From contig JBECKX010000179.1 of assembly GCA_040235515.1 (NCBI GenBank), forward strand, positions 15,232-79,231: a stretch of DNA of 64,000 bases, given 5' to 3'. The notes below the pieces were generated by a model that did no database searches, was not told the DNA's origin, and saw nothing but the letters and a program-made list of their open reading frames with translations. The DNA is from Candidatus Zixiibacteriota bacterium. GTDB taxonomy: Bacteria > Zixibacteria > MSB-5A5 > CAIYYT01. Of this stretch, positions 4,080 through 20,491 are shown piece by piece. The first letter of the stretch is position 1. Every line of letters starts with the position of its first letter. The translations under genes and the position numbers were made by a program.

Positions 4080-4420
4080 TCTGCTAAATCCTCCTTCGCT
4101 CCTGCTGAAGCGCTGCCATTTCTATTTGCAATAGCTTTGCCGAGGTGGTGGATTCCGCGACCCGATTTCTAAGTCGTTAAATCTCAATCAGAAAAAGCGC
4201 AGCCAGGGTTGGGCGTGGAAATGAGAGGGAATTTGTTTCAAGCGGAAACTATAGCTCGCTCCCCACAGGTCATAAGCGCTCAACCATACAGTTGACCAAT
4301 CGGGTATAGCTGGAGCAGTATGGGAATTCCCCAATAACTATTGAGCAAGATCATCAGATCGTTTGGCAGTGGTGTTGTCAGCCATGCAAGTAACTCATTG
4401 CATGATAATGACTAAAGATC

Positions 4421-5767: not shown

Positions 5768-5991
5768 CCGCTTGCTCCGCGGCGATGATAACCAGCGGTT
5801 GTCAGTTTGACAGATGACTCGCCCCCGATCGAATTCAAGCATAACATTTCTCTAAACTCTCCCCCCTCACCGCGACATTTCTCCCAATTTCGCGTTATGT
5901 CAACTAAGGACTTGTGACCCGTGCCGGATTTGGGTTTCTTTGGCCCAACCCAATACCGGGCATTTGACTCAATCCGACAAAGCGAGCGAAG

Positions 5992-7245
5992 ATGCACTAT
6001 GTAATCATAGGGAATGGTGTCGCCGGCATCAATGCCGCCAACACAATTCGCGGCAGGGATGACTCAGCCAAGATCACGATAGTCTCGTATGAGAGCGATC
6101 ATTTCTTCAGTCGCACCGCGCTGATGTATCTCTACGCGGGTCAGTTGAGTGACCGTTGCGTAGAGCCATTTGAACGTGACCACTACAGCCGGATGAAGTT
6201 TGAGCGTGTCAGGGATCATGTCGAGCAAGTTGAGTTCAGGGAGCAGAGAGTCAGGCTCAGGAGTGGAGAAGCGATCCACTACGACAAGCTGTTGATAGCC
6301 TCCGGTTCGCTGCCGGTAGCCGGCCCCTGGCCGGGGAGTGATCTTGAGGGTGTAGGCCATTTCGTGACCTGGCAAGACCTCGAGTGGTTGCGGTCGATCG
6401 GGCCCGGTGCGCGATCAGCCGCAGTGATCGGGGGAGGACTGATTGGAATTGAGGTAGCGGAGATATTGCTGCTCGACGGTGTTGATGTCCATTTCCTTGT
6501 CAGAGAGCCACATTTCTGGCCTGTCGCACTCAATCAGGCCGAAGCCTCACTCGTGTCGGATCATATGCGGAGCCATGGTTGTGACCTGCGGCTATCGACA
6601 GAAGTGAGCGAGCTTGTCGGTAGTGGCGGCAGAGTCAGCGGTGTTCGCACGAAGGATGGTGGTGAATTCCCCGCAGATCTGGTCGTTGTTGCTATCGGCG
6701 TTCGGCCACAAACCGACTTCCTCAGAGACTCGGGGCTATCCTTCGACGAGCGTGGCGGGATAGTGGTTGACGACCAGCTTCAGACCGGTTTCGACAATGT
6801 CTGGGCGGCCGGAGATTGCACGTCGGTCGTCTGGTTCAACGGCGTCCGTCGTCCCGAGCAGTTGTGGTACACGAGTCGTGACCAGGGGAGAATCGCCGGC
6901 CGGAGCATGGTTGGCGATGCCGTGGAGTACAAACGCGGCATCTTTTACAATTCAGCAAAGTTCTTCGATATCGAATACACGACGGCAGGCTACGTCAATT
7001 TCAACTTTGATGGCGAGCGCGACTGGTATCAACATGAACCGGGAACGAACTTCAGCGAACGGATTACATCTCTTCCGGATGGTCGCGTGATCGGTTTCAA
7101 CATGCTCGGGCGACGCTGGGATCACGTGGTCATGACAAAGTGGATAGCTGAGGAGCGGCAGCTCGAGTGGGTGCTCGCTCACCTCCACGAAGCACTTTTT
7201 GACGAGGAGTTCATGCCGAAGTTCAAACTCATAGAGCGAAGATGA
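5992..7245 (+). CDS. FAD/NAD(P)-binding pyridine nucleotide-disulfide oxidoreductase family protein
   Basis: 417 aa. It has two Rossmann GxGxxG motifs (VIIGNGVAG; VIGGGLIGIE), a fold typical of NADH-dependent FAD oxidoreductases and the reductase components of nitrite reductase or rubredoxin reductase. Confidence 0.7.
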   Translation: MHYVIIGNGVAGINAANTIRGRDDSAKITIVSYESDHFFSRTALMYLYAGQLSDRCVEPFERDHYSRMKFERVRDHVEQVEFREQRVRLRSGEAIHYDKLLIASGSLPVAGPWPGSDLEGVGHFVTWQDLEWLRSIGPGARSAAVIGGGLIGIEVAEILLLDGVDVHFLVREPHFWPVALNQAEASLVSDHMRSHGCDLRLSTEVSELVGSGGRVSGVRTKDGGEFPADLVVVAIGVRPQTDFLRDSGLSFDERGGIVVDDQLQTGFDNVWAAGDCTSVVWFNGVRRPEQLWYTSRDQGRIAGRSMVGDAVEYKRGIFYNSAKFFDIEYTTAGYVNFNFDGERDWYQHEPGTNFSERITSLPDGRVIGFNMLGRRWDHVVMTKWIAEERQLEWVLAHLHEALFDEEFMPKFKLIERR

Positions 7246-7272
7246 TCGGGACAGCGGAGCTGGAGGACTGAG

Positions 7273-8691
7273 TTGCAGGCAGGCATACTGAAAACCTACC
7301 GTCATGGTGCCCAGAGCAGAGGGGTGTGGGGTTACATTGCGGCCCTGCTGCTGTTTGCATTCTACGTTCTGATATACTTCACCGAGGCACTAACACCGGT
7401 CGCGCAGTTCCTTCATCTTGGTGGCAAATGGAATCTGTATGGGACGTTGTACACGGCAGCGATCGTTCTGGGTGGCATCTACTTCCTGCGCCGACATGGC
7501 AACAGCCGCTACCATCGCATTCGCACCCTTTCGGTGATATTCTTCCAGGTCGTCTTTGCGTTCTCGATTCCAATGATTCTTGAACTACTGGGGATGAAAG
7601 GCTTCACCTTTTCGATTTTCTGGCCCCTCAAGCTCGACTACTTCAACCCCTCCTACATCTTCGATTATCCGATCGTGCTGGTGCTCTACGCCTTCCTCAG
7701 TTCTCTCATACTGGTTCCGGTGCTGGCATTCCTGGTGGGAAAGCGCTGGTATTGCAGCTGGGTTTGTGGTTGCGGGGGACTGGCTGAAACCGCAGGCGAA
7801 CCATATCGTCATCTCTCAAACAAGTCTTCGGCTGCGTGGCGATTCGAACAGTTCTCGATCTATGCGGTGCTGGCATTCGCTGTGCTTGTCACAGTGTTGA
7901 TGATGGTTAACTGGTCGACAGGGGTGGCCGTGCGCGGGGAGGTCACGACGGCGTCACGAGTGATGTCGGCCAACGCTGAGGCCGCTGGCACACCTCGATT
8001 GGTGCTCTATGGTTCACCAAAGCTCGAGTTCCCTTACAACAGCAAATCTGTCTGGGCACCTGTCGGTGATGCAAGCGCTGAGAGGATGCCTGATGCATGG
8101 AGAGTCGTTGCGATCGGCGGGGAGATGGTCAGCCGGGAAACACAAGCTGCTTACGGGCTCGAATTTCGGGAGGGTTCCCTGCAAGTCGTGAGTACCGGCC
8201 CGGCTGAGAGTGACAAGGTCTTTGGCGCGTGGGACAGATTGGGCGACAGCAAGACACTCGAGATCAGTTTCCCTCGCTACGCGACGTTTTCGGCGATCGC
8301 CACGAGAATACAGGGGATATATGGGTTCGTGGTGGTAGCGCTGCTTTCGGGGATCTTCGGAGTTGGGCTCTATCCGCTTCTGGGCACACGAGTTTGGTGC
8401 AGGTTCTTCTGCCCGCTCGCTGCGATCCTGGGGATTGTCCAGAAGTTCGGGCGCTTTCGCATCACGGTGAAGAAGGATATGTGTATCTCTTGCGGTAATT
8501 GCTCGACCTATTGCGAGATGGGTATCGATGTACGATCGTATGCGCAAGCGAACCTCAGCTTCAAGCGAGCTGCGTGTGTGGGTTGCGGGATGTGCGCACA
8601 TGTCTGTCCGCGCGGGGTACTCAAGTTAGAGAACAAATGGGATTTGGGGCCAAACGATGAAAATTCGAACATCCAGATACTGGATATGTGA
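7273..8691 (+). CDS. membrane-bound polyferredoxin (NapH/MauN/CcoG-like 4Fe-4S binding protein)
   Basis: 472 aa with multiple TM helices. TM-embedded Cys motifs (CSWVCGCGG, CRFFCPLAA) are present, together with two C-terminal ferredoxin-type clusters (CISCGNCSTYCE, CVGCGMCAHVCP). A large hydrophilic insert sits between the TM blocks. Confidence 0.6.
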   Translation: MQAGILKTYRHGAQSRGVWGYIAALLLFAFYVLIYFTEALTPVAQFLHLGGKWNLYGTLYTAAIVLGGIYFLRRHGNSRYHRIRTLSVIFFQVVFAFSIPMILELLGMKGFTFSIFWPLKLDYFNPSYIFDYPIVLVLYAFLSSLILVPVLAFLVGKRWYCSWVCGCGGLAETAGEPYRHLSNKSSAAWRFEQFSIYAVLAFAVLVTVLMMVNWSTGVAVRGEVTTASRVMSANAEAAGTPRLVLYGSPKLEFPYNSKSVWAPVGDASAERMPDAWRVVAIGGEMVSRETQAAYGLEFREGSLQVVSTGPAESDKVFGAWDRLGDSKTLEISFPRYATFSAIATRIQGIYGFVVVALLSGIFGVGLYPLLGTRVWCRFFCPLAAILGIVQKFGRFRITVKKDMCISCGNCSTYCEMGIDVRSYAQANLSFKRAACVGCGMCAHVCPRGVLKLENKWDLGPNDENSNIQILDM

Positions 8692-8701
8692 CGGTGCTTT
8701 T

Positions 8702-9574
8702 ATGAGTGATTCAGTTGTGCGTTTGCAGGCACGAGGACGCAGAACACCGACTCTGCGTCGAGTGTTGGCGACAATAATGCTAGCGGCGTTGGCAGTTGCG
8801 GGATGCAGCCAGGCGGAAACCGAAGCTGGTGGGGCGCGAATCTCGGCGGTCAAGCTGGATCATAGCTATGCCGGTTATGCGCGACTGCTTGCAAGCTATG
8901 TGCAGGGTGCAAGGGTTGACTATGCCGGGCTCAAATCGGATCGCGCCGCCCTGGACTCTGTGGTAGCGATGATCGCCGATGCGGAATTGACAGATGCGTC
9001 TACTCAACAAAGACTGGCGTTCTATATCAATGCCTACAACATCCTGACGCTGCGTTCGATCGTCGCTGCCTACCCGGTGAAGTCAATCAAGGATATCGAT
9101 GGTGTCTGGCAGAAGAAATGGCGCGTTGCCGGACGCGAGCTTTCCTTGGACCAGATAGAGAACCAGATTCTGCGCGTTGAGTTTTCGGAACCGCGCATCC
9201 ATGTAGCGATCAATTGTGCTTCGATCAGTTGTCCGCCACTGCGCGGGGAACCATACAGGGCCGAACGAATCGAGGAACAACTCACTGAGGCGAGCCGCGG
9301 CTTTGCGACTTCGAACCACTACAACCAACTCCTTCCGACCGAAGGCAAAGCCAGGATTTCGATGATATTCGATTGGTTCGGCGGTGATTTTGTGGAACAG
9401 TTTTACCAGCCGGGTCACGCTGCAAAACTTTCGAAGGAAAAGAATGCTGCATTGAGTTTCCTGATCAAGTACTCGAGCCTGACCGACTCTGTGGAGTCAT
9501 TGCCGGAGGAGTGGGAAGTCAGCTTTATCGAATATGACTGGGGATTGAATGAGATACCGAACGATGCACGCTGA
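8702..9574 (+). CDS. DUF547 domain-containing lipoprotein
   Basis: It carries the DUF547 signature FYINAYN. The N-terminus has a lipobox (LAALAVAGC). The ATG at 8702 was chosen to avoid a 35-nt overlap with the upstream gene; the ORF-track start at 8657 is also possible. Confidence 0.6.
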   Translation: MSDSVVRLQARGRRTPTLRRVLATIMLAALAVAGCSQAETEAGGARISAVKLDHSYAGYARLLASYVQGARVDYAGLKSDRAALDSVVAMIADAELTDASTQQRLAFYINAYNILTLRSIVAAYPVKSIKDIDGVWQKKWRVAGRELSLDQIENQILRVEFSEPRIHVAINCASISCPPLRGEPYRAERIEEQLTEASRGFATSNHYNQLLPTEGKARISMIFDWFGGDFVEQFYQPGHAAKLSKEKNAALSFLIKYSSLTDSVESLPEEWEVSFIEYDWGLNEIPNDAR

Positions 9575-9619
9575 GCATCCACCGGTTCGTATGCGACTGC
9601 TTCAGCAAATAGCTGCTTT

Positions 9620-10315
9620 ATGACTCTCGGCAACCGCAAGATCATCGCAATCATCCCGGCATTGAACGAAGAATCCTCTGTTGGAAAGGTCATCACAGAA
9701 CTACCCGGGATGGTGAATGGCGTGATCGTCTGTGACAATGGATCGACCGACCGTACAGCTGCTGTGGCGCGGGAGGCTGGCGCGAAAGTAGTTGAGGAGA
9801 TAGAGAGAGGCTACGGTGCTGCGTGTTTGCGGGCAATCGCGGCGGCGCCTGCTGATACCGGCGTATTGCTCTTCATAGACGCAGACTACTCGGACTTTCC
9901 TGAAGAGGCGACAAACCTGCTGGAACCGTTGGCGGAGGGACATTACGACCTGGTCATCGGTTCGCGCATGTTGACCTACAGCGACCACAAGGCGCTGCCA
10001 CCGGTGGCGGCATTCGGCAACTGGCTGACCAGTAACTTGATCCGCATTATCTGGGGTGCGCGATTCACCGACATCGGCCCGTTTCGGGCGATCAGGTATG
10101 AGCAATATCAGAAGTTGGAAATGAAGGACCGCAACTTTGGCTGGACGACAGAGATGCAGGTGAAGGCAGTGAAGCGTGGGTTGCGGTGCCTTGAAGTTCC
10201 GGTCAGGTATCGTCCGAGGATCGGGGAGTCAAAGATTTCGGGGACAATCTCCGGCTCGATCAGGGCGGGCTTCAAATTCTTGTGGATCATCCTCCGGGAG
10301 GCGTTCTCCCGATGA
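9620..10315 (+). CDS. short GT2 family glycosyltransferase (Dpm1-like; consistent with rSAM/selenodomain-associated transferase 2, TIGR04283-type)
   Basis: 231 aa. The GT2 N-terminus reads IIAIIPALNEE...VIVCDNGSTD with a DAD motif. The size and its position in the same coupled cluster as the ArsS-type rSAM and a DUF2064 protein match the known TIGR04283 context. Confidence 0.6.
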   Translation: MTLGNRKIIAIIPALNEESSVGKVITELPGMVNGVIVCDNGSTDRTAAVAREAGAKVVEEIERGYGAACLRAIAAAPADTGVLLFIDADYSDFPEEATNLLEPLAEGHYDLVIGSRMLTYSDHKALPPVAAFGNWLTSNLIRIIWGARFTDIGPFRAIRYEQYQKLEMKDRNFGWTTEMQVKAVKRGLRCLEVPVRYRPRIGESKISGTISGSIRAGFKFLWIILREAFSR

Positions 10316-11616
10316 AGTGGAGGGTGATTCTCTATTCGCTGATTGCGCTCTTCCTCTTGACTGAGATTGCAATTTTCCTGCCTGACTATGATGAGCCTCG
10401 GATGGTAAAGTTCATCGTGATTTCGCAGATCCTGATGCTACTATCAGTGGGGATTTTCCTGGCCGGAAAGAAACTTCAGATTGCAGCGGGGATGGCGCGC
10501 CACGTCTGGATTGTTGTTCTGCTCGCGGTTGTCGCTCGCACGGTCATGTTGATCGGAGCGGGGGACAAATTCTATATCTCCGATGATATCTACCGTTATG
10601 TGTGGGACGCCAAGGTCAATGCGGCGGGAATAAACCCTTATCTTCATGCGCCCGATTCCGATTCGTTGAGGGCCTATCGGGAGGGTGAAATCTTCGGGCA
10701 GATCAATCACAACTGGCTGCCCACCATCTACCCCCCAATGGCTCAGAATATCTTCTTCGTGGTCTACCTGCTGGGAGGTGAGAACCTGTTCGCCTTCAAG
10801 CTGGTCACTGCGTTCTTCGAGTTGCTAACTTGTTTGGCGCTGTTCGTGCTGGCACGCGAGTGGGGAATACCACCAGCGAATTTGCTGCTCTATCTGTTTT
10901 CACCGCTGGTACTGATCGAGTTTTACCTATCAAACCACCTCGACATTCTCGCGCTGCCCTTCCTGGTGGCCGGTTTGATCACGCTGAAGCGGCGACAGGC
11001 GTTGCTGACCGGCATGCTGCTGGGACTCGCGACGCTCGTGAAGTTCTTCGGGCTCTTCTTCCTGCCAGTCGTCTTCTTCCACCTTAAAGGGAAAGAGAAG
11101 CTTCATTTTGCGGCTGCCTTCGTGGTTACTGCAGTTGCATTGTATCTGCCCTACATCGCCGATGGTGGACTGAGCGTGTTCGGGTCGTTGTTCGAGTATC
11201 TGCAGGAATGGCAGTTTAATGCTTCGGTTTATTTCGTGCTGAAATACTTCCTCAAGGTAGAAATCGCGCGCTATCTCGTAGCTGGGGCTTTCGTGGTCTG
11301 GGTGGGATGGTTGCTCGCGCGCAAACTACCGATCGAGCGGAAACTTCAGGATACCTTCGGTGGTTATATGGTGCTGACACCGACGCTGTTCCCCTGGTAC
11401 TTTGTCTGGATCTATCCAATGTTGTTGAGGACCCTGTCACCTGCATTTATCTATCTCTCAGGCGCGCTGCTCCTCTCCTATCATGTTCACATAGGCTACT
11501 ATGACACCGGTACCTGGTCGCCGATGCCCTGGTTGGGAATCGCGGCGTACGTTCCGTTTTATGCATTGCTGGTCGGAGTAACGTTGTTTCGAAGGGTGCG
11601 GCTTAAGGTGCAATGA
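10312..11616 (+). CDS. polytopic membrane protein, GT-C-like (DUF2029/mannosyltransferase-like)
   Basis: About 435 aa with at least 10 predicted TM helices, resembling the GT-C fold and DUF2029. An ATGA start/stop overlap with the upstream GT2 indicates translational coupling. Confidence 0.45.
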   Translation: MKWRVILYSLIALFLLTEIAIFLPDYDEPRMVKFIVISQILMLLSVGIFLAGKKLQIAAGMARHVWIVVLLAVVARTVMLIGAGDKFYISDDIYRYVWDAKVNAAGINPYLHAPDSDSLRAYREGEIFGQINHNWLPTIYPPMAQNIFFVVYLLGGENLFAFKLVTAFFELLTCLALFVLAREWGIPPANLLLYLFSPLVLIEFYLSNHLDILALPFLVAGLITLKRRQALLTGMLLGLATLVKFFGLFFLPVVFFHLKGKEKLHFAAAFVVTAVALYLPYIADGGLSVFGSLFEYLQEWQFNASVYFVLKYFLKVEIARYLVAGAFVVWVGWLLARKLPIERKLQDTFGGYMVLTPTLFPWYFVWIYPMLLRTLSPAFIYLSGALLLSYHVHIGYYDTGTWSPMPWLGIAAYVPFYALLVGVTLFRRVRLKVQ

Positions 11617-13070
11617 CAGATCTGCTCATAATCACATATTTCGCTCTGCTGTTCTTTATCAGTTTCTATGGCGTGTACCTCTATTGGCTGGTGGTCAACT
11701 ATCTGCGTTTGCCCGGTCAAACCCCACTCGTTCCGATGGAGCCTGAAGATGCCACGAACTTGCCGATGGTCACCGTTCAGTTGCCAATCTTCAATGAGAA
11801 ACGCGTTGTCGCGCGCCTGATCGAGGCGGTGACACACTTCGAGTGGCCGCAGGAGAAACTGGAAATTCAGGTGCTCGACGATTCGACAGACGAGACGAGT
11901 GAGATAGTCGCACGTTTGGTGACCGAGCTGAGTGGTCGCGGAGTGACGATCGAGCATATCAGAAGGCCCCACCGCGCCGGCTACAAAGCTGGTGCTCTGG
12001 CCGTGGGGCAGGAGAAGGCGCGCGGAGAATTCATCGCGATCTTCGATGCGGATAACATCCCGCCGAGCGATTTTTTGCGGCGTATGATTCCATACTTCGA
12101 TGATCCCCGGGTTGGTATGGCGCAGGCGCGCTGGAGTTTTCTTAATCGGGATGACTCGCTGTTATGCCAGGCGCAGGCGTTGTTTCTCGATTCACATTTC
12201 TACATCGAGCAGGCGGCGCGATCACGTGCAGGTTTGTTTCTGAATTTCAACGGAACGGCAGGTATCTGGCGGCGCCGGGCGATCGACAGCGCGGGCGGCT
12301 GGCAATCGGATACGCTGACCGAGGATCTCGACCTCTCCTATCGCGCACAGTTGCTTGGCTGGAAGATGTTGTTTGTCGAGGATGTCGATGTCCCGACCGA
12401 GCTACCCAATTCGGTGCGCGCCTTCAAGACGCAACAGCATCGCTGGGCGCGCGGTGCGATGGAGACCGGTTTCAAGTTGCTCGGGCGGGTACGCAGGGCG
12501 AAGTTGCCATTGGCGGTCAAGATTGCGGCGCATTTTCATCTGACGCAGAAGGTGGTGTCGGTTGCGTTACTGCTGCTGTCGATTCTGTTGATCCCGGCGC
12601 TCTATTTTCGCTGGGAAGCAAGCGCCTACAAAGTACTGCTGATCGACCTGCCGGTGTTTATTACCGGTATGGGGGCGATGTCGGTTTTTTATGGTATCGC
12701 GTACCGCCGTGAAAAGAAGAATCACAGTGCGAGGGCACGGCTGGTACTGCCGATGTTGAGCGCAATCGGGCTGGGACTGGCAGCGAACAATTCACTCGCT
12801 GTGATCTCGGCGCTGAAGCGGCGCGAGAGCGAGTTCGTCAGAACACCGAAGACCGGTTCGGCACGGGGTCGCAAGCTGGGCATTCCTCACGAGTATCGTG
12901 TGAGTTTCGACAGGACGTTGCTGGTTGAAGCGCTGCTCCTGGCGAACGGCAGCATTGCGTTCATTTATGCGTTTGATCTCGGCCTCTATTTCAGCCTGCC
13001 ATTTCTCGCAACCTTTGTGTTCGGCTACGGCTATTTCGTCGTGAATTCTTTGCGGGAGAGATATGGGTAA
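11613..13070 (+). CDS. processive family-2 glycosyltransferase (cellulose synthase/NodC/glucosyl-diacylglycerol synthase-like)
   Basis: 485 aa. It has an N-terminal TM helix, DDSTDET, DAD, TED (TEDLDLSYR) and QxxRW (QQHRWARG) motifs, and C-terminal TM helices. It overlaps the upstream gene in an ATGA arrangement. Confidence 0.75.
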   Translation: MTDLLIITYFALLFFISFYGVYLYWLVVNYLRLPGQTPLVPMEPEDATNLPMVTVQLPIFNEKRVVARLIEAVTHFEWPQEKLEIQVLDDSTDETSEIVARLVTELSGRGVTIEHIRRPHRAGYKAGALAVGQEKARGEFIAIFDADNIPPSDFLRRMIPYFDDPRVGMAQARWSFLNRDDSLLCQAQALFLDSHFYIEQAARSRAGLFLNFNGTAGIWRRRAIDSAGGWQSDTLTEDLDLSYRAQLLGWKMLFVEDVDVPTELPNSVRAFKTQQHRWARGAMETGFKLLGRVRRAKLPLAVKIAAHFHLTQKVVSVALLLLSILLIPALYFRWEASAYKVLLIDLPVFITGMGAMSVFYGIAYRREKKNHSARARLVLPMLSAIGLGLAANNSLAVISALKRRESEFVRTPKTGSARGRKLGIPHEYRVSFDRTLLVEALLLANGSIAFIYAFDLGLYFSLPFLATFVFGYGYFVVNSLRERYG

Positions 13071-13713
13071 AATTGCAGTCGGGCTGATGGCCAAGTTTCC
13101 GGAAATGGGGAAAGTAAAAACCAGGCTGGCCGCTGAGATAGGAGATCCCGCAGCGCTGCAGATCTATGCCACACTGCTGCAAATTGTGATGGAGAAGCTG
13201 AGGGAGCTTAACCGCGACCGATTTCAAACCTCTGTATTTGTAGCCCAGGAGAAACTGGTGGAGCGTTTCAGGTCACAATACCCGGGTGCGGCACACTACG
13301 CGGCGCAGAGTGCCGGTGACCTCGGTGCTCGTATGGAAGCAGCGATGCGAAATCTGCTCACCGGCGACAGTATCGAGGGCGTGCTGCTGATCGGTGCAGA
13401 TATTCCGGGAATCACCGCGGAAATCGTCGAGGAAGCAGCCTCGCAGTTGCTGGCGCACGACCTTGTCCTCGGGCCGACATTTGATGGTGGCTATTATCTG
13501 ATAGGGTCGCGCACCGTGCATCCGGAGTTGTTCCGGCAGATGGAGTGGAGCACCGATTCGGTCCTTTCGGAAACACTGAAGCGGGCCGGCGATGCAGGCT
13601 TGACGATTTTCCGCCTCGAAGAGCTGTCGGACCTCGACACTCTGGAGGATGTCGGTCGACTGCCGCGTGAAAGCAACGCCTTGATCAATTTACTCGACAC
13701 GTACTCGTCCTAG
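13063..13713 (+). CDS. DUF2064 family protein (TIGR04282-type, rSAM/selenodomain-associated transferase 1)
   Basis: 216 aa. The N-terminus (IAVGLMAKFPEMGKVKTRLA) and the GADIPG motif are typical of DUF2064. It is coupled by overlap to the upstream GT2 and lies immediately upstream of the AhpD-like and ArsS-like genes. Confidence 0.65.
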   Translation: MGKIAVGLMAKFPEMGKVKTRLAAEIGDPAALQIYATLLQIVMEKLRELNRDRFQTSVFVAQEKLVERFRSQYPGAAHYAAQSAGDLGARMEAAMRNLLTGDSIEGVLLIGADIPGITAEIVEEAASQLLAHDLVLGPTFDGGYYLIGSRTVHPELFRQMEWSTDSVLSETLKRAGDAGLTIFRLEELSDLDTLEDVGRLPRESNALINLLDTYSS

Positions 13714-13741
13714 TTGGGGCGAGAGATTCAGGAGCTGAAGC

Positions 13742-14074
13742 ATGGGTGATTATTTCGATTCGAAGGATCTGGCGAAATTCGGCAAGATTGGCAGGGTCAA
13801 CAAGGAGCTCGCCGACAAATACTTCGAGTACTACAACAGCGTTATGCAGGAGGGCAACCTGAGCGCCCGCGAGAAGGCGCTGATTGCGCTCGCGGTAGCA
13901 CACACCCTGAAGTGTCCCTATTGCATCGATGCCTACTCCACAGCGTGCATGGAGAATGGAGCAGATGAGGAACAGATGAGTGAAGCCGTTCATGTGGCCG
14001 CCGCGATGTCGGCGGGCATAACGCTAGTCCACAGCGTCCAGATGCAAAATCATATCGACTCACTGATGGGTTAG
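13742..14074 (+). CDS. AhpD-like / carboxymuconolactone decarboxylase family protein (arsenosugar-cluster-associated peroxidase-like type)
   Basis: 110 aa with a CxxC motif (KCPYCID) in an AhpD-like helical core. It sits between the DUF2064 and ArsS-like genes, as in the described rSAM/selenodomain neighbourhoods. Confidence 0.6.
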   Translation: MGDYFDSKDLAKFGKIGRVNKELADKYFEYYNSVMQEGNLSAREKALIALAVAHTLKCPYCIDAYSTACMENGADEEQMSEAVHVAAAMSAGITLVHSVQMQNHIDSLMG

Positions 14075-14109
14075 TCGGTGGGGCGGTAGTTTGGAGATCG
14101 GAGCGTGAA

Positions 14110-15105
14110 TTGAAGCTGGAAAAACAACTGCGCACACTCGAATCGTACGAGCAACCGTTCTGGAGATTCGTCAAGGAGCATTCCAACAATGGTGGCAGCT
14201 TGACGGCGTTGTCGATTAAGACGTTTCAAGTCAATGTGGGAAAACGCTGCAATCAAACATGCGTACATTGCCATGTCGATGCCGGACCGACTCGAAAGGA
14301 GATGATGACGCGTGCAACCGTAGACCGCTGTCTTGAGATCATTGCCGGCGTTCCGGGAATCGAGACGGTAGACATCACCGGTGGCGCGCCGGAGATCAAC
14401 CCCAACTTCCGGCATCTCGTAACGGAGTCGCGTCGGCTCGGTAAGCATGTGATTGACCGCTGCAATCTCACGATTCTGGAATACGAGGGATTCGAGTATC
14501 TCTACGAATTTCTCTCCGACAACAGGGTAGAGATTGTGGCGTCACTACCTCACTTCGCAAAGAGCAACACTGATCGCCAGCGCGGCGCAGGTGTGTATGA
14601 TAAATCAATCAACGCGCTGAAGAAGTTGAACGAGCTTGGCTACGGAACTGAACTACCCCTCAATCTGGTGTACAATCCGGTTGGCTTGTTCCTGAGTGCG
14701 CCACAGAAGCAACTGGAGCGTGAGTTCAAGCAGGAACTTCAGCGCAGGCATGGAATCGTATTCAACAACCTCTATTGCATCAATAATCTGCCAATCAACC
14801 GTTTCCTGGCGTTCCTTGTCCGGAATGGCCGGTTCGAGGATTACATGGAGACACTGGTGACATCGTTCAATCCCGGGACGCTGGAGGGATTGATGTGTCG
14901 CCACCAGATTTCAGTCGGCTATGACGGTAAGATCTATGATTGCGACTTCAATCAGATGCTGGAGCTGGAAGCGCAGCCGGTTGGACATATCAATGGTTTC
15001 AACCTCGATGAGTTTATGGCACGCCGGATCGAGATCGGCAACCACTGCTTCGGGTGCACGGCAGGTTCCGGTTCAAGCTGCGGTGGCGAGATCATCGAAG
15101 TCTGA
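14110..15105 (+). CDS. arsS: ArsS-type radical SAM protein with C-terminal Cys-rich domain (Cys form, not Sec)
   Basis: 331 aa. The rSAM CxxxCxxC motif reads CNQTCVHC. The C-terminal Cys-rich tail is CFGCTAGSGSSCGGEI, where Cys occupies the position that is Sec in the selenoprotein forms. A TTG start is inferred. Confidence 0.7.
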   Translation: MKLEKQLRTLESYEQPFWRFVKEHSNNGGSLTALSIKTFQVNVGKRCNQTCVHCHVDAGPTRKEMMTRATVDRCLEIIAGVPGIETVDITGGAPEINPNFRHLVTESRRLGKHVIDRCNLTILEYEGFEYLYEFLSDNRVEIVASLPHFAKSNTDRQRGAGVYDKSINALKKLNELGYGTELPLNLVYNPVGLFLSAPQKQLEREFKQELQRRHGIVFNNLYCINNLPINRFLAFLVRNGRFEDYMETLVTSFNPGTLEGLMCRHQISVGYDGKIYDCDFNQMLELEAQPVGHINGFNLDEFMARRIEIGNHCFGCTAGSGSSCGGEIIEV

Positions 15106-15516
15106 CGTGAATCTGGCGTGACCGGACCACAAATTCATATTCTTCACCCGGATCAGCGGGTTGGAGATTGAAATCGTGGGTATCGATCGCCTATACTTCA
15201 GGTTAAGTTAGCTCACAACGGCACACGGGAAAGAAGGGGCGGGGAGTCTGTGGCATTCGGGACAGAGCGTGTGCCTCCCTCATCGCCCACCAACCGCTAC
15301 CTTGATGCGTTTTTAGTTAAGGATTTGCTCACAGAGTCGTGAGATGTTTGTGAAAAAAAGCACGAACATGGGGCTGAAACGTCAGCGCGGATAGATGTTT
15401 GCGTGGCGGAACCGTCGGCATTACGCATTGTGCTGCAACAGTTTATGAGATAGGCCGCAATGGCGCCTATCATGGACTGATCTAATCCAAATACCCTACT
15501 TTGTCATAAATTTCGC

Positions 15517-15544
15517 TTGACTCTCTCAGGTGAGGAGTTACTAT
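15517..15544 (+). promoter_or_regulatory. putative sigma70-like promoter TTGACT-N16-TACTAT upstream of the cbb3 biogenesis cluster
   Basis: TTGACT at 15517-15522 and TACTAT at 15539-15544 are separated by a 16-nt spacer, about 120 nt upstream of the ccoI start. This is a sequence match only. Confidence 0.3.
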
Positions 15545-15564
15545 TGGGGAGTCTTTAATCGGCG

Positions 15565-15591
15565 ATTACACTAGTTGGCATTACACTAGTT
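15565..15591 (+). repeat. tandem direct repeat ATTACACTAGTT x2 (each unit contains the palindrome ACTAGT) just downstream of the putative -10; candidate operator
   Basis: Exact 12-nt units occur at 15565-15576 and 15580-15591, separated by GGC. Confidence 0.5.
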
Positions 15592-15664
15592 TTCGTGTTT
15601 CATGTAACAGTTGTCCATTGTCTTAGTCTGGTAACTTGGCGCGTAGCCGGGATTATGAATAGCA

Positions 15665-18133
15665 GTGAATCGATTTGAAGATGCCGAGGGCGGCGAAACA
15701 TTAGAGGGCACCACCATCGCTGGAGTGGAAGCGTCGCCCGAGTTGAGTTGCGCCCACTGCGGTGATCCCTGCAGAGAGAGTGACCCAAAGCTTGGGGAGA
15801 AGTACTTCTGCTGCCACGGCTGCCTTACTGTTTATCGAATGCTGACAGAACACAAACTGGGCAACTATTACCAGTTGAATGCTCAGCCGGGGCTGTCACT
15901 CAGGCAACATTCGGGGTCGGAGAAGTTTGAGTTCCTGGATGATCCTGAAACGGCGCGTCGTTTGCTCGATTTCAGTGATGGAAAGCTGGCACGGGTTCAG
16001 CTGTATGTTCCGCAGGTTTACTGTTCCTCCTGTATCTGGCTCCTGGAAAATCTCTATCGCTTACAACCTGCTGTGCTGGAGTCGAAGGTTGATTTCGTAA
16101 AGAAGGAGATCGCCATCTCCTTCCGTGAAGATAAGCTTACGCTGCGCGAGCTGGTGGAGTTACTGGCGTCGCTCGGCTACACCCCCAGCCTTACGCTCGA
16201 TACGACAGAGAAGAAACCGGATCGGAGAATCGGGCGGCGATTGTTGCTTCAGACCGGGCTGGCCGGGTTTGCCTTTGCCAACATCATGCTGCTCAGTTTC
16301 CCCGACTATCTCGACACCGTTGGCGCCATCGGCTCGGAATTCACGCGCTTTTTCGGTGTGGTTAGCCTGGTACTGGCCACGCCTGTCTTCCTGTACAGTG
16401 CTGCGGACTTTTTCAAGACCGCCTGGGGCAGCCTGCGACGCCGCCAGATGCACCTGGATGTTCCAATTTCGCTCGGCATTATTGCCCTGTTTGCTCGCAG
16501 TATCTATGACATAGTCACGGCGACCGGTACGGGGTTCCTGGACTCGATGTCGGGGCTGGTGTTTTTCCTGCTGATCGGTCGCATAATCCAGACCAGAACT
16601 TACAGGGCGCTCTCATTCGACCGCGACTACAAGTCCTACTTCCCGCTCTACGTGACTCGCGTCAGCGGTGACACCACCCAACAGGTCGCCGCCACCAATG
16701 TCACTGTCGGTGACAGGATTGCGGTGAGAAACGGTGAGCTGGTTGTTGCTGATGCGATACTGATCAGCAGCGAGGCGAGCATCGACTACAGCTTTGTGAG
16801 TGGTGAAGCTGAGCCGGTGAGGCGCAAATCGGGGGATTTGGTCTATGCCGGCGGCCGGGTCAGCGGTGATCGGGTCGAGCTGGAAGTGGTAAAGGATGTC
16901 TCCCAGAGTTACCTCGTCAGCCTCTGGAATTCGCAGCAATTCAAGCGGGAGCGGGAGAGTAAAGCCTCTCAGCTGGCCGAGAGTGTCGCACGTTATTTTA
17001 CCGCCGGAGTGTTGCTGCTTGCGGCGATTACCTTTGCCGCCTGGTTTCCGCAGGGATTGAACAGCGCGTTGCTCACGGCGACTGCGGTGTTGATCGTGGC
17101 TTGTCCCTGTGCGCTGGCCTTGACGATTCCGTTCACTTATGGTACGGCGATGCAGGTGATGGGAGCACGGGAGCTGTATCTGCGCAACCAGGGCGTGGTT
17201 GAGGGGTTGGCGAAGGCTGACACGATCGTTTTCGATAAGACCGGTACGCTGACGGTCGGCGGCAGTGGTGGAGTGGAGTTCGAGGGTGAGGCTTTAACTG
17301 CGCGCGAACGCCACCTGATCAAGTCGCTGGCGCTGCAATCGATCCACCCGATGAGTCGTCAAATCGTCGAGATGCTTGATCACGCTACGGCTTCGATTCC
17401 CCAGGGAGTAACTGAAAACCCCGGTCGAGGAATCTTAGGGCGGGTAGCGAATGTTGAAGTAAAAATCGGTTCACGCGAGTGGATCGGGACCGAGCCGGGG
17501 AATGCTGCGGATGCAGCGCCTGAGTCTGGCGGCGAAGCCTGGGTCACATTTGACGGTGTGATACGTGGTCGATTCGTGATGCGGTCGCAGGTGCGACCCG
17601 ATGTCGGGCAGAGTCTCTCGACCATGAGAAATACGCATTCGCTCTGGTTGCTCTCCGGTGATGGCGACCGCGAGAAGGCGCGTTTCACCGATTATTTTGA
17701 GGATGACAAACTGATCTTCAGGCAGTCACCACAACAGAAGCTCGATTTCATGGACAGGTTACGGAGCGGTGGCAAGCGACTGATCATGCTCGGTGACGGG
17801 CTCAATGACGCCGGTGCGCTGGCTGCCAGTGATGTGGGGATCGCGGTCTCCGACCGGGTGGCATCCTTCACTCCGGCCAGCGACGCGATCCTGGCGGGGG
17901 AGTCTTTGTGGCGGATGCCGGCCTTTATTGGCCTGAGCAAACGCGCGATCAAGATAGTGGTCGCCGGATTCATAATATCATTTGTCTATAATTTCGTGGG
18001 ATTATACTTTGCCGTAACGGGTCAACTTTCACCACTTTTGGCGGCGATTCTGATGCCGCTCTCCTCGGTGACGGTTGTCGGATTTGCGGTAGCCGCCACC
18101 AGATTGGCGGCGAAACGGGAAGGTTTGATATAA
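15665..18133 (+). CDS. ccoI: copper-translocating P1B-type ATPase, CcoI/FixI type (cbb3 oxidase maturation)
   Basis: 822 aa. The N-terminal Cys-rich FixI-type domain reads CAHCGDPC...CCHGCLTVY. It carries the CPC motif (ACPCALAL), DKTGTLT and GDGLNDAGAL. A GTG start is inferred. It sits directly upstream of ccoS and ccoNO. Confidence 0.85.
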   Translation: MNRFEDAEGGETLEGTTIAGVEASPELSCAHCGDPCRESDPKLGEKYFCCHGCLTVYRMLTEHKLGNYYQLNAQPGLSLRQHSGSEKFEFLDDPETARRLLDFSDGKLARVQLYVPQVYCSSCIWLLENLYRLQPAVLESKVDFVKKEIAISFREDKLTLRELVELLASLGYTPSLTLDTTEKKPDRRIGRRLLLQTGLAGFAFANIMLLSFPDYLDTVGAIGSEFTRFFGVVSLVLATPVFLYSAADFFKTAWGSLRRRQMHLDVPISLGIIALFARSIYDIVTATGTGFLDSMSGLVFFLLIGRIIQTRTYRALSFDRDYKSYFPLYVTRVSGDTTQQVAATNVTVGDRIAVRNGELVVADAILISSEASIDYSFVSGEAEPVRRKSGDLVYAGGRVSGDRVELEVVKDVSQSYLVSLWNSQQFKRERESKASQLAESVARYFTAGVLLLAAITFAAWFPQGLNSALLTATAVLIVACPCALALTIPFTYGTAMQVMGARELYLRNQGVVEGLAKADTIVFDKTGTLTVGGSGGVEFEGEALTARERHLIKSLALQSIHPMSRQIVEMLDHATASIPQGVTENPGRGILGRVANVEVKIGSREWIGTEPGNAADAAPESGGEAWVTFDGVIRGRFVMRSQVRPDVGQSLSTMRNTHSLWLLSGDGDREKARFTDYFEDDKLIFRQSPQQKLDFMDRLRSGGKRLIMLGDGLNDAGALAASDVGIAVSDRVASFTPASDAILAGESLWRMPAFIGLSKRAIKIVVAGFIISFVYNFVGLYFAVTGQLSPLLAAILMPLSSVTVVGFAVAATRLAAKREGLI

Positions 18134-18358: not shown

Positions 18359-20491
18359 ATGGAAGTCGAACAATTTTCATACGACAATAAAATCGTCAGG
18401 TATTTCACCTACGCGACCGCCTTATGGGGCGCAGTAGGTATGTTGGTCGGGGTGATCGTCGCCCTGCAGATATTTATTCCGGAAGCGAATTTCGGTATCT
18501 CGTGGTTGACCTATGGCAGGCTCAGGCCGCTGCACACGAATGCTGTAATTTTCGCTTTCGTCGGCAACGGCATTTTCGCCGGCGTCTATTACTCGCTGCA
18601 ACGACTCTGCAAAGCGAGGATGTGGTCTGACCTGCTGAGCAAGCTGCATTTCTGGGGCTGGCAGTTGATCATCGTCTCGGCGGCGATCACTTTGCCACTC
18701 GGGTATACCACCTCGAAGGAGTACGCGGAGCTGGAGTGGCCAATCGATATCCTGATCGCGCTCGTCTGGGTGATTTTCACGGTCAACATGTTCGGAACGA
18801 TATTCAAGCGGCGCGAACGTCATATGTACGTCGCGATCTGGTTTTACATCGCGACCGTCGTGACGGTGGCGATGCTGCATATCGTTAACTCAATCGAGTT
18901 CCCGCTATCGTTGATGAAGAGTTATCCGGTTTACGCCGGAGTACAGGATGCGCTGGTGCAGTGGTGGTACGGCCACAACGCCGTGGCGTTCTTCCTGACC
19001 ACACCGTACCTGGGGTTGATGTACTACTTCGTGCCGAAGGCGGCGAACCGTCCGATATTCTCCTACCGGCTCTCGATCATTCACTTCTGGGCGCTGATCT
19101 TCATCTACATCTGGGCAGGCCCTCACCATTTGCTTTACACCTCACTCCCTGACTGGGCTCAGTCGCTCGGCACGGTGTTCTCGATCATGCTGATTGCTCC
19201 GTCCTGGGGTGGCATGATCAACGGATTGTTGACATTGCGTGGCGCCTGGGATCGAGTACGCACCGATCCGATTTTGAAGTTCTTCGTTGTAGCGATAACG
19301 GCTTACGGTATGGCAACTTTCGAGGGGCCGATGCTTTCGATAAAGAGCGTCAATGCTATCTCGCACTACACCAGCTGGACCATTGCCCATGTGCATGTGG
19401 GAGCGCTCGGCTGGAACGGATTGCTGACCTTTGGCATGCTGTACTGGATGGTGCCTCGTTTATTCAAGACGAAACTCTATTCGGTCAAACTGGCGAATTT
19501 GCACTTCTGGATATCGACGCTGGGGATTGCCTTCTATGCCATCCCGATGTATTTCGCCGGTTGGATGGAAGGATTGCTCTGGAAGCAGTTCACGCCTGAG
19601 GGTTTCTTGCAATACCCCAACTTCCTTGAGATCGTTACCCAGATCATCCCGATGTATGCGATTCGTGCATTCGGCGGCGCGCTTTACCTCTCCGGCGTAT
19701 TCGTGATGGCGTACAATTTGATCAAGACGATGAAATCGGGTGTGGCGGAGGACAACGAAGCTGCCGAAGCCCCGGCGTTGCCGAAGAAGTATCATGAGAA
19801 GGAAGTTCATCCATACCGTCACCGCTGGCTGGAGGCCAAGCCGGCACAGTTTATCGTGCTGACCTTTATCGCCGTGGCCATCGGCGGATTGATCGAATTC
19901 ATACCGACATTCATGGTAAAATCGAATGTGCCGACGATTGCGTCGGTACGCCCTTACACGCCGCTTGAATTGGAGGGTCGCGACATTTATATCCGCGAGG
20001 GATGCAACAACTGCCATTCGCAGATGATCAGACCATTTCGCTCCGAGACCGAGCGCTATGGTGAATACTCCAAGGTTGGTGAGTTCGTGTATGACCATCC
20101 GTTCCTCTGGGGTTCCAAGCGCACCGGACCTGATCTGCACCGTATCGGCGGCAAGTACCCCGATGCGTGGCATTATCAGCATATGGAGGATCCACGCTCG
20201 ATGTCGCCGGGATCGGTAATGCCGCCTTACCCGTGGTTGCTGACCAGCAAGCTTGACACCTCGCATACTCGCGACAAGATATCATTGATGCGATCGCTCG
20301 GAGCGCCATACAGCGATGGTTACGAGGAGCAGGCGATGGCCGACTTACAGGAACAGGCGGAGGGAATTTCCAAGGGGCTTGAGGAAGCGAAGATCATCAC
20401 CGACTGGGATTCCGAGATCGTGGCCCTGATTGCTTACCTGCAACGACTTGGAACCGATATCAAGGTAGAGGGGGCGCAGGCGGGATTATGA
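18359..20491 (+). CDS. ccoNO: cbb3-type cytochrome c oxidase, fused subunits I and II (CcoN-CcoO)
   Basis: 710 aa. The first ~470 aa form a polytopic heme-copper oxidase subunit I. The C-terminal part is the mono-heme CcoO (CNNCHSQMIRPFRSETERYGEYSKVGEF...GPDL). The fusion is typical of Bacteroidetes/FCB lineages. Confidence 0.9.
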   Translation: MEVEQFSYDNKIVRYFTYATALWGAVGMLVGVIVALQIFIPEANFGISWLTYGRLRPLHTNAVIFAFVGNGIFAGVYYSLQRLCKARMWSDLLSKLHFWGWQLIIVSAAITLPLGYTTSKEYAELEWPIDILIALVWVIFTVNMFGTIFKRRERHMYVAIWFYIATVVTVAMLHIVNSIEFPLSLMKSYPVYAGVQDALVQWWYGHNAVAFFLTTPYLGLMYYFVPKAANRPIFSYRLSIIHFWALIFIYIWAGPHHLLYTSLPDWAQSLGTVFSIMLIAPSWGGMINGLLTLRGAWDRVRTDPILKFFVVAITAYGMATFEGPMLSIKSVNAISHYTSWTIAHVHVGALGWNGLLTFGMLYWMVPRLFKTKLYSVKLANLHFWISTLGIAFYAIPMYFAGWMEGLLWKQFTPEGFLQYPNFLEIVTQIIPMYAIRAFGGALYLSGVFVMAYNLIKTMKSGVAEDNEAAEAPALPKKYHEKEVHPYRHRWLEAKPAQFIVLTFIAVAIGGLIEFIPTFMVKSNVPTIASVRPYTPLELEGRDIYIREGCNNCHSQMIRPFRSETERYGEYSKVGEFVYDHPFLWGSKRTGPDLHRIGGKYPDAWHYQHMEDPRSMSPGSVMPPYPWLLTSKLDTSHTRDKISLMRSLGAPYSDGYEEQAMADLQEQAEGISKGLEEAKIITDWDSEIVALIAYLQRLGTDIKVEGAQAGL

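Follow-up and report, generated by a model that had tools for sequence, protein, structure and literature searches.

A radical SAM enzyme of the ArsS family in a probable nine-gene operon with membrane glycosyltransferases: a candidate variant of the arsenosugar gene neighbourhood in Zixibacteria

Introduction

Does an ArsS-family enzyme of the radical S-adenosylmethionine (SAM) class still serve arsenic chemistry when its gene stands among glycosyltransferase genes and no arsenite methyltransferase gene (arsM) lies beside it? The question is raised by a 64-kb stretch of contig JBECKX010000179.1 from a Candidatus Zixiibacteriota bacterium (the whole 64,000 nucleotides analysed, hereafter the window), in which an ArsS gene closes a run of same-strand genes. 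According to PMC13598754 and PMC8552651, the characterised reaction of ArsS joins the 5'-deoxyadenosyl group of SAM to dimethylarsenite, giving 5'-deoxy-5'-dimethylarsinoyl-adenosine, and the catalysis documented there is that of the Synechocystis-type enzyme alone; turnover is reported to be redox-neutral once the enzyme is primed (PMC13598754). A preliminary description of the window had singled out six of the genes and read them as a route to a modified glycolipid or polysaccharide rather than to arsenosugars. Here we arrive at another reading. We tentatively propose, with a confidence that stays somewhat short of even, that nine genes form one operon, a lineage-specific extension of the ArsS gene set, and that its product is an envelope-bound arsenosugar conjugate.

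Results

Gene content and junctions of the operon

The operon spans 5992-15105 and consists of nine open reading frames (ORFs) on the + strand. Families were called by the curated cut-offs of Pfam and NCBIfam, and motifs were read straight from the translations (FAD, flavin adenine dinucleotide; CoA, coenzyme A; GT, glycosyltransferase; TM, transmembrane).

5992-7245, +: FAD/NAD(P)H pyridine-nucleotide-disulfide oxidoreductase of the CoA-disulfide reductase/NADH oxidase-like class, without the dimerisation domain (PF07992, 186.9 bits)
7273-8691, +: membrane polyferredoxin of the NapH/MauN/CcoG type (Fer4_5 and Fer4_21 matches; motifs and TM segments)
8657-9574, +: DUF547 protein, probable exported lipoprotein (PF04784, 95.8 bits)
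9620-10315, +: short soluble GT2 with a GT-A fold, Dpm1/AglJ-like, here called GT2a (PF00535, 69.8 bits)
10312-11616, +: membrane glycosyltransferase of GT-C fold, GT87/MptA_B (PF09594, 29.2 bits against a cut-off of 25)
11613-13070, +: synthase-like membrane GT2, cellulose-synthase-like/GT21 type (Glyco_tranf_2_3, Glyco_trans_2_3 and Glyco_transf_21; DAD, TED and QQHRW motifs)
13063-13713, +: DUF2064/TIGR04282 protein, nucleotidyl-transferase/GT-A-like fold (TIGR04282, 185.7 bits against 134)
13742-14074, +: AhpD-like CxxC protein, TIGR04169, the ArsS-associated 'peroxidase-like' family (178.1 bits against 120)
14110-15105, +: ArsS, radical SAM plus DUF3641 domain and Cys-rich tail (TIGR04167, 429.8 bits against 300)

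All six genes listed earlier for 9620-15105 are present as + strand ORFs of the families then named, the profile hidden Markov model (HMM) check having placed the DUF2064, AhpD-like and ArsS proteins above the cut-offs of TIGR04282, TIGR04169 and TIGR04167. The six are real, but the unit comprises nine; a DUF547 gene (8657/8702-9574) had been overlooked between the polyferredoxin and GT2a. The junctions of the last six genes are, in order, -4 (ATGA), -4 (ATGA), -8 (ATGGGTAA), +28 and +35 nt, so that two of the three ATGA overlaps described before stand, while the third is an overlap of 8 nt. Gaps of 224 nt upstream and 560 nt downstream bound the operon, and beyond the latter an unrelated cbb3-oxidase cluster begins. 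A scan of 4000-16500 against Rfam gave nothing credible, its one ALIL match (20 bits against 50) lying within the ArsS gene; promoter and terminator consensus matches barely exceed those in shuffled sequence (10 against 7.0±3.1 and 16 against 9.8±3.0) and do not define the operon ends.

Recurrence in other loci

For comparison we used 80 ArsS loci, sampled across phyla from one-genome-per-species contigs and annotated with phmmer and self-built HMMs; these and further loci are cited by label (L001 and so on). The zixibacterial locus L003, whose ArsS is 67% identical to that of the window, holds the same nine genes in the same order between unrelated flanks. L001 also has nine genes in this order, but its oxidoreductase-sized upstream gene has no family match on record. 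In L093 (ArsS 69% identical) all nine families are again found between unrelated flanks, with DUF547 through ArsS kept; the polyferredoxin and oxidoreductase lie on the other side and on the other strand, yet still next to each other. The set also occurs in a second phylum. Cesiribacter sp. SM1 (L086, Bacteroidota) has eight of the nine families in one uninterrupted same-strand run, rearranged to oxidoreductase, polyferredoxin, GT2a, synthase-like GT2, GT-C, AhpD-like, ArsS, DUF2064, with 27-64% identity to the window proteins. Three Pontibacter species (L032, L057 and L075) have AhpD-like, ArsS, rhodanese and DUF2064 genes in a row and GT-C, synthase-like GT2 and GT2a nearby, which brings six of the nine operon families together within 10 kb. 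Among these Cytophagales, identities to the window reach 48-51% for GT2a, 40-43% for the synthase-like GT2 and 39% for the oxidoreductase. Judging from a comparison of their match lists, GT-C and ArsS apparently share at least eight contigs, and the nearest homologues of both carry the names Zixibacteria or GN15.

The ArsS/DUF2064/AhpD-like trio is thus embedded in a glycosyltransferase cluster, as had been described, and the neighbourhood survey found this arrangement again in L001, L003 and L093 and, rearranged, in L086 and the three Pontibacter loci. Because the set recurs in two phyla through rearrangements, and because reading frames overlap, the nine genes probably constitute one functional unit. 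We found no description of this architecture in the literature searched.

The rhodanese-domain protein that sits between ArsS and DUF2064 in Pontibacter (L057:10875-11423; also in L075 and L032) matches NF045521, 'rhoda_near_glyco', with 171 bits against a cut-off of 145.

ArsS and the missing arsM

The window ArsS covers model positions 3-303 of the 303 in TIGR04167, at which the cut-off is of equivalog grade, and also matches PF04055 and PF12345 (176.8 bits). Its CX3CX2C motif reads CNQTCVHC (residues 47-54), and the Cys-rich tail noted previously was read in the translation as HCFGCTAGSGSSCGG, which is the Cys form and not the selenocysteine form. The protein is 51.5% identical to the ArsS that the cyanobacterium Stenomitos encodes next to an arsM, and 50-53% identical to arsM-linked and ArsM-fused ArsS in general; in an alignment of 84 ArsS it has the consensus residue at 79 of the 79 columns that are at least 97% conserved. 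By sequence, it is a bona fide member of the TIGR04167 family. No solved ArsS structure was found on which substrate residues could be mapped. Of its two usual partners, the AhpD-like protein carries CPYC at residues 58-61, its gene ends 35 nt upstream of ArsS, and a homologue adjoins ArsS in 55 of the 80 sampled loci. The DUF2064 protein matches PF09837 (107.7 bits), CofC and MobA weakly, and PDB 3cgx, a 'putative nucleotide-diphospho-sugar transferase' (E = 9.5e-31).

How, then, is the lack of arsM to be read? None of the window ORFs scanned with Pfam belongs to the ArsM, ArsR, ArsB/ACR3 or ArsC families, and an HMM built from 17 ArsS-adjacent ArsM proteins has no match in the window; the earlier remark that no arsM or ars genes are nearby is therefore borne out. 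Nor is arsM found in the flanks of L001, L003, L093, L086, L057, L075 and L032. Across the sample, an ArsM-like gene identified by NCBIfam adjoins ArsS in only 17 of 80 loci (9 of the 42 with at least 5 kb on both sides). None of the eight loci of the glycosyltransferase type (GT-type) has one, a depletion that is not significant (Fisher p = 0.20).

The ArsM-linked loci are scattered over a neighbour-joining tree of ArsS that otherwise tracks taxonomy. GT-linked ArsS do not form a clade: those of Zixibacteria group with Leptospira and Fibrobacteria, and those of Cytophagales lie beside arsM-adjacent ArsS, the Cesiribacter enzyme (L086) being 73% identical to, and in the tree sister to, the arsM-adjacent ArsS of L076. 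No alignment column has disjoint residue sets in 18 ArsM-linked and 7 GT-linked ArsS, and this comparison gave no sign of a changed substrate. ArsR-like genes adjoin ArsS in four loci, and PitA-like genes in four, among the sampled loci plus further ones, and the family as a whole carries a clear arsenic signature. DUF547 and DUF2064, members of the cluster, are likewise found in ArsS loci that do contain arsM (L067, L068). Since an adjacent arsM is uncommon throughout and no residue marks the GT-linked enzymes, the window ArsS being indistinguishable from arsM-linked ones, the phrase 'rather than arsenosugar synthesis' in the preliminary description is not supported. In the literature, arsM has been noted in a few Zixibacteria genomes (PMC10439189), and beyond this remark we found nothing specific on arsM in Zixibacteria or Pontibacter in the literature searched.

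Several further observations touch on ArsM and the ArsS neighbourhood. A single 713-residue ORF, L065:9959-12100, is a complete ArsS fused to an ArsM-like methyltransferase and is flanked by TIGR04283 and DUF2064 genes; it is a Rosetta-stone link between the two activities. In the window, a TehB-like SAM methyltransferase (34359-34946, -) was considered as a hidden ArsM and rejected, as this 195-residue protein has TehB/CpaM-type matches only and is unmatched by the ArsM HMM. The gene, scanned with NCBIfam and the ArsM HMM, lies 20-30 kb from the operon, as does that of a small glyoxalase/VOC-superfamily protein (45553-45948, +), for which Pfam and the self-built HMMs gave no arsenic-specific match. 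OlsE-like membrane proteins of the fatty-acid-hydroxylase family recur in ArsS loci (L068:13228-13986; L080:691-1560; L054; L081), an MIP channel stands between ArsS and ArsM in L068, and a second MIP match lies near ArsM in L039. These neighbours may indicate ties to lipid metabolism and to the transport of arsenite.

The glycosyl module

GT2a resembles the Dpm1/AglJ/GtrB-like polyprenyl-phosphate sugar synthases at the level of the family and falls short of the equivalog level, its nearest NCBIfam models, AglJ (140 bits against 325) and dolichyl-phosphate hexose transferase (93 against 375), both lying below cut-off; it also matches the Pyrococcus DPMS (PDB 5mlz). For the GT-C protein, whose relatives in the database carry PF26314 MptA_B, the AlphaFold model is confident (pLDDT 93.5, pTM 0.92). 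Its best Foldseek matches are ALG3, GPI mannosyltransferase I, PimE and ArnT (TM-scores normalised to query length, 0.46-0.61) as well as ALG6, with 11-18% sequence identity between it and the solved GT-C structures among the top matches, and all of these use polyprenyl-phosphate sugar donors. In its first external loop lies an acidic motif, SDDxYRY, of which S90, D92, R95 and Y96 are invariant in 37 homologues. The labels Dpm1-like and GT-C-like, as first applied to these two proteins, hold up well. Given the likeness of the GT-C model to enzymes with polyprenyl-phosphate sugar donors, and the Dpm1/AglJ-like character of the coupled GT2a, we infer that GT2a makes a lipid-phosphate sugar that is used by GT-C outside the membrane.

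The third member, the synthase-like GT2, shows DAD at 145, TED at 236 and QQHRW at 274 together with about five predicted TM segments. With 116 bits for CelA and 102 bits for PgaC it stays far short of either cut-off; its best solved relative is BcsA (92 bits), and it also matches PF13506, the model of GT21 lipid glycosyltransferases. The QxxRW motif reported for this protein is real, but its processivity, likewise reported, is suggested by motifs alone, and the same motifs occur in non-processive GT21-type lipid glycosyltransferases. Its product could be a glycan or glycolipid acceptor.

The GT2 of the TIGR04283 family has no counterpart in the window: against the cut-off of 182, GT2a scores 45.3 and the synthase-like GT2 32.8 bits, and an HMM made from genuine members finds none there. 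Since TIGR04283 is absent from all GT-type ArsS loci and present in many other ArsS loci with DUF2064, we propose that GT2a takes its place in GT-type loci; the mutual exclusion of the two is not significant, both sets being too small.

The membrane redox pair and the DUF547 protein

The FAD oxidoreductase reaches no NCBIfam model at its cut-off. Orthologues with 39-63% identity occur in the same cluster in L003, L089, L093 (inverted there) and Cesiribacter L086. The polyferredoxin, whose start codon is uncertain (TTG 7273), has about five TM segments, two WCxxxC(P/G) motifs and two CxxCxxCxxxC clusters; it scores 67 bits against NapH/MauN, below the cut-off of 213, and weakly shares motifs with the window's own CcoG. 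The two genes are co-conserved across loci and travel with the cluster even after inversion. In the ArsS sample the polyferredoxin is confined to 2 of 80 loci, Cesiribacter L086 and a weak match in L072, and the pair co-varies with the glycosyltransferase module rather than with ArsS.

The DUF547 protein, likely to start at ATG 8702, has the lipobox AVAGC and a conserved NCASxSCPPL (Cx4C). In an alignment of seven homologues all N-termini are signal peptides or lipoboxes and the Cys pair is conserved (NCASxxCPPL), which points to an exported Cys-pair protein, probably a lipoprotein. It is present in L001, L003, L089 and L093; it adjoins ArsS in L067, which also has ArsM, TIGR04283, PitA and a MerA-like FAD oxidoreductase, and in L078, with a weak match (76 bits) in the arsM-containing L068. 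In L090 it adjoins the alternative radical SAM enzyme described below, and thus recurs with both radical SAM families. No sequence relative of the protein was found in the PDB, and its single-sequence AlphaFold model (pLDDT 34.9) has no usable fold.

MerA-like FAD disulfide oxidoreductases recur near ArsS, often fused to a VTT/DedA membrane domain, and the flavoprotein-polyferredoxin pair of the window may play an equivalent redox role at the membrane. VTT/DedA domains, free or fused to a MerA-like oxidoreductase (NF004991), stand beside ArsS or the alternative enzyme at L034:6750-8900, L082:6224-8845, L091:12824-14983 and L070:8892-9584. An FAD oxidoreductase near ArsS in Melioribacteraceae (L027/L046) was rejected as a case of linkage, as it is part of a DsrC/DsrE sulfur cluster several genes off.

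A second radical SAM family in the same slot

The seven upstream genes of the zixibacterial locus L089 have their orthologues in the window (46-74% identity, as close as L003). DUF2064 (TIGR04282, 181.9 bits) is directly followed by a different radical SAM protein of 304 residues, and there is no AhpD-like gene. This replacement of ArsS is found in L089 and apparently in two further contigs. The L089 enzyme is 23% identical to ArsS and scores 44 bits against TIGR04167. The best curated model for its family is the Rv1681 family, at about 104-109 bits against a cut-off of 380, so no curated family covers it. Profile-profile alignment with ArsS by hhalign gives 97.8% probability and E = 1.2e-12 over 275 columns that include the C-terminal Cys motifs, which makes the alternative enzyme, at the level of profiles, a full-length distant homologue of ArsS. 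The family counts 7365 database proteins at E <= 1e-10, and among the listed matches outside the closest relatives 54-61% identity is found in several phyla. Members of about 305-316 residues, with PF04055 as their only match, were placed as follows.

L089:13425-14339: alternative radical SAM enzyme
L090:9001-9933: alternative radical SAM enzyme
L091:9001-9918: alternative radical SAM enzyme
L092:10001-11104: alternative radical SAM enzyme

In Verrucomicrobia (L090) the order is DUF547, alternative radical SAM enzyme, ArsM-like methyltransferase, VTT protein, MerA-like oxidoreductase and a TIGR04282::TIGR04283 fusion; in Motiliproteus (L091) it is DUF2064, alternative radical SAM enzyme, MTAP-like phosphorylase and a TIGR04283-like GT2. 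The radical SAM slot of the operon is thus conserved, its occupant coming from either of two distantly related families that are both linked to ArsM-like genes. Because the slot is kept despite the change of occupant, the coupling of a radical SAM step to the glycosyl module is supported. The alternative enzyme may be a second one that forms a carbon-metalloid bond by adenosylation.

Other features of the window

Just upstream of the operon, 4421-5767 encodes an acidic, low-complexity protein of 448 residues with no Pfam or NCBIfam match. Directly downstream, a ccoI-NO-P-G-H-DsbD_2 cluster contains CcoN and CcoO fused in one 710-residue ORF (18359-20491; COX1 + FixO). Proteins with sorting domains of the type IX secretion system are also encoded in the window; together with the names of the nearest GT-C and ArsS homologues, they point to a Zixibacteria-like member of the FCB group as the probable source. 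Two tandem paralogues of about 980 residues, 56022-58967 (-) and 59408-62356 (-), have a C-terminal dockerin as their sole recognisable domain.

Discussion

Taken together, these observations suggest, by inference from families and neighbourhoods, a variant ArsS pathway in which a 5-deoxyribosyl organoarsenical is handed to a polyprenyl-phosphate/GT-C route that ends on the cell envelope. Methylated As(III) would come from a distal arsM or from the surrounding community. The AhpD-like CxxC protein, the Cx4C DUF547 lipoprotein and the flavoprotein-polyferredoxin pair would handle the arsenical's thiol and redox state, keeping or making it trivalent and delivering it, and the redox proteins may also prime the radical SAM cluster. 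After adenosylation, adenine would be removed by an enzyme of the purine nucleoside phosphorylase (PNP) type, here a housekeeping one, and DUF2064/TIGR04282 would activate or transfer the resulting 5-deoxyribosyl unit. GT2a, standing in for the canonical TIGR04283 enzyme, would load the sugar onto polyprenyl phosphate, and GT-C would pass it on from there, on the outer side of the cytoplasmic membrane, to a glycan or glycolipid that the synthase-like GT2 makes. The end product would be an arsenoglycolipid or an arsenic-decorated glycan that serves the detoxification or sequestration of methylated As(III).

For the adenine step, other loci provide supportive implications. PNP_UDP_1/MTAP-like genes stand directly beside ArsS (L034:9901-10749; L037:1922-2743; L058:10374-11180) or the alternative radical SAM enzyme (L091:9977-10828), which fits what is expected if adenine is cleaved from an adenosylated product. 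In L058, AhpD-like, ArsS, PNP-like and DUF2064 genes are followed by a small ORF and then TIGR04283, an order that fits a sequence of adenosylation, adenine removal, activation by DUF2064 and transfer by the GT2. The most specific form of the proposal, in which the operon supplies GT-C with a polyprenyl-phosphate-linked 5-deoxy-5-(dimethylarsinoyl)ribofuranose or related metalloid sugar for decorating an extracytoplasmic glycan or lipid, we regard as improbable as it stands. If true, it would be the first lipid-carrier-dependent glycosylation of an organoarsenical and would supply genes for late steps in arsenosugar and arsenolipid formation.

Several facts weigh against the proposed envelope-bound arsenosugar conjugate. 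We know of no biochemical demonstration of any post-ArsS step in a protein from these families. Dpm1-like GT2 enzymes normally use an NDP-hexose (NDP, nucleoside diphosphate) as donor, not a 5-deoxypentose. No arsM, ars resistance or nucleoside phosphorylase gene was found in the window or in the eight GT-type ArsS loci, and the Cytophagales GT-C proteins are merely 27% identical to that of the window. The operon core does not strictly need ArsS, as L089 has ArsS and the AhpD-like gene replaced by the other radical SAM enzyme. Furthermore, since GT-C and the synthase-like GT2 form an adjacent pair without ArsS, DUF2064 and GT2a in two other phyla (L006:8526-11380; L008:10001-12735), and GT-C is found by itself in L007 and L094, the glycosyl module is separable from ArsS and has a life of its own.

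The alternative that survives best concerns one part of the proposal. The 5992-8691 pair might be a dedicated electron-donor chain for the [4Fe-4S] cluster of the radical SAM enzyme, as was suggested in the preliminary description, and not an arsenical or thiol reductase. A radical SAM enzyme depends on a one-electron donor at least to be primed; in five loci the pair is conserved together with a radical SAM-containing operon, and it remains adjacent after inversion; and the polyferredoxin has two ferredoxin-type clusters on its C-terminal side. We nevertheless think such a role rather unlikely and not specifically supported. The CcoG-type relatives are metal reductases, and the confinement of the polyferredoxin to 2 of 80 ArsS loci shows that the pair tracks the glycosyltransferase module, not ArsS. 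In canonical loci a MerA-like FAD disulfide reductase is found instead, often with a VTT/DedA fusion, which points to redox chemistry of the substrate or of thiols at the membrane, and ArsS catalysis itself is described as redox-neutral after priming in PMC13598754.

A more far-reaching alternative is that the ArsS-type enzyme adenosylates a non-arsenic substrate and that the operon makes an arsenic-free glycolipid or polysaccharide derived from a 5-deoxyribosyl or adenosyl unit. In its favour, an adjacent arsM, ArsR or Pit gene is found in 0 of 8 GT-type loci; 63 of the 80 ArsS loci have no arsenic gene alongside, and only one member of the family has been characterised; and an unrelated-looking radical SAM enzyme can replace ArsS and the AhpD-like gene (L089 and apparently two more contigs). 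Against it, the arsM depletion lacks significance at p = 0.20; no specificity position separates GT-linked from arsM-linked ArsS, the 79 conserved columns are kept, and the Cesiribacter GT-linked enzyme is sister, at 73% identity, to an arsM-adjacent one; and in L090 the replacing family itself has genes for an ArsM-like methyltransferase, for DUF547 and for a TIGR04282::TIGR04283 fusion next to it. We judge an arsenic-free product to be unlikely.

Least probable, in our view, is that two or three independent modules (the redox pair, a module for a glycan or glycolipid of the envelope, and the ArsS trio) lie side by side with no common pathway: the GT-C/synthase pair and GT-C alone do occur elsewhere as noted, most ArsS loci have neither GT-C nor synthase, and the Pontibacter parts stand about 5 kb of unrelated genes apart on opposite strands, but the synthase and DUF2064 reading frames overlap by 8 nt and ATGA overlaps join the glycosyltransferase module, the gene set is kept through changes of flank, order and strand in Zixibacteria-like loci and is contiguous in a second phylum (L086), and GT-type loci do not have the TIGR04283 gene that elsewhere accompanies DUF2064, which suggests substitution, not coincidence.

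Having weighed these alternatives, we return to the proposed arsenosugar conjugate and conclude that the cluster is best filed with the known ArsS neighbourhood, as a variant, and not with systems unrelated to arsenic. Nor should a missing neighbour arsM be taken as evidence that the function is a non-arsenic one, given that roughly four fifths of ArsS loci have none. In the literature searched we found no paper on the enzymes that turn the ArsS product into arsenosugars or arsenosugar lipids, and nothing specific on arsenolipid gene clusters or on DUF547 with radical SAM enzymes. The operon offers a defined, testable gene set for late steps, namely DUF2064, the Dpm1-like GT2, GT-C, the synthase-like GT2, DUF547 and the membrane redox pair. 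Its presence in cultured Cytophagales (Pontibacter, Cesiribacter) makes genetics and arsenic speciation possible, and with the alternative radical SAM enzyme that can fill the slot of ArsS, the question extends to a second family of enzymes, as yet unstudied.

Comparison with known systems

Among the redox proteins, the polyferredoxin shares with NapH, MauN and CcoG the TM-flanking WCxxxC(P) motifs and the two CxxCxxCxxxC clusters; it differs from them in an insertion of about 125 residues between TM4 and TM5 and in having a cytoplasmic FAD oxidoreductase as partner. For the glycosyl module, the closest parallels are Ppm1/PimE, Dpm1/ALG3, ArnC/ArnT and DPA/Emb, and the window likewise couples a Dpm1-like GT2, here translationally, to a GT-C enzyme; we know of no such system of polyprenyl-phosphate sugar and GT-C that is coupled to a radical SAM enzyme.

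Hopanoid side-chain synthesis offers an analogy of working only. There, the adenosylating radical SAM enzyme HpnH is followed by the nucleosidase HpnG and then by the GT2 HpnI. The shared logic is adenosylation by a radical SAM enzyme, loss of adenine and glycosylation of the ribose-derived unit by a membrane GT2; the GT2 genes of the window match HpnI and HpnB weakly, and PNP-like genes flank ArsS elsewhere. Unlike the hopanoid pathway, the radical SAM enzyme is of another family, the acceptor would be arsenic and not hopene, and no hopanoid genes are present.

The ArsM-ArsS arsenosugar pathway of Synechocystis sp. PCC 6803 (Xue et al. 2019, as cited in PMC8552651) has a radical SAM enzyme of the same family as the window ArsS, with the same CX3CX2C motif and Cys-rich tail. 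In contrast to it, the window has no adjacent arsM, has AhpD-like and DUF2064 partners, and adds to the operon three membrane-linked glycosyltransferases, a DUF547 lipoprotein and the flavoprotein-polyferredoxin pair.

Finally, the arsenosugar neighbourhood of NCBIfam (TIGR04167, TIGR04169, TIGR04282 and TIGR04283) is represented in the window by three of its four families above cut-off and in the usual close order, and the DUF547, FAD oxidoreductase and PNP-like genes of other such loci fit the same toolkit. The window departs from this neighbourhood in two respects: TIGR04283 is missing, with the Dpm1/AglJ-like GT2, GT-C and the cellulose-synthase-like GT2 in its place, and the flavoprotein, from another class, has a NapH/CcoG-like polyferredoxin as its partner.

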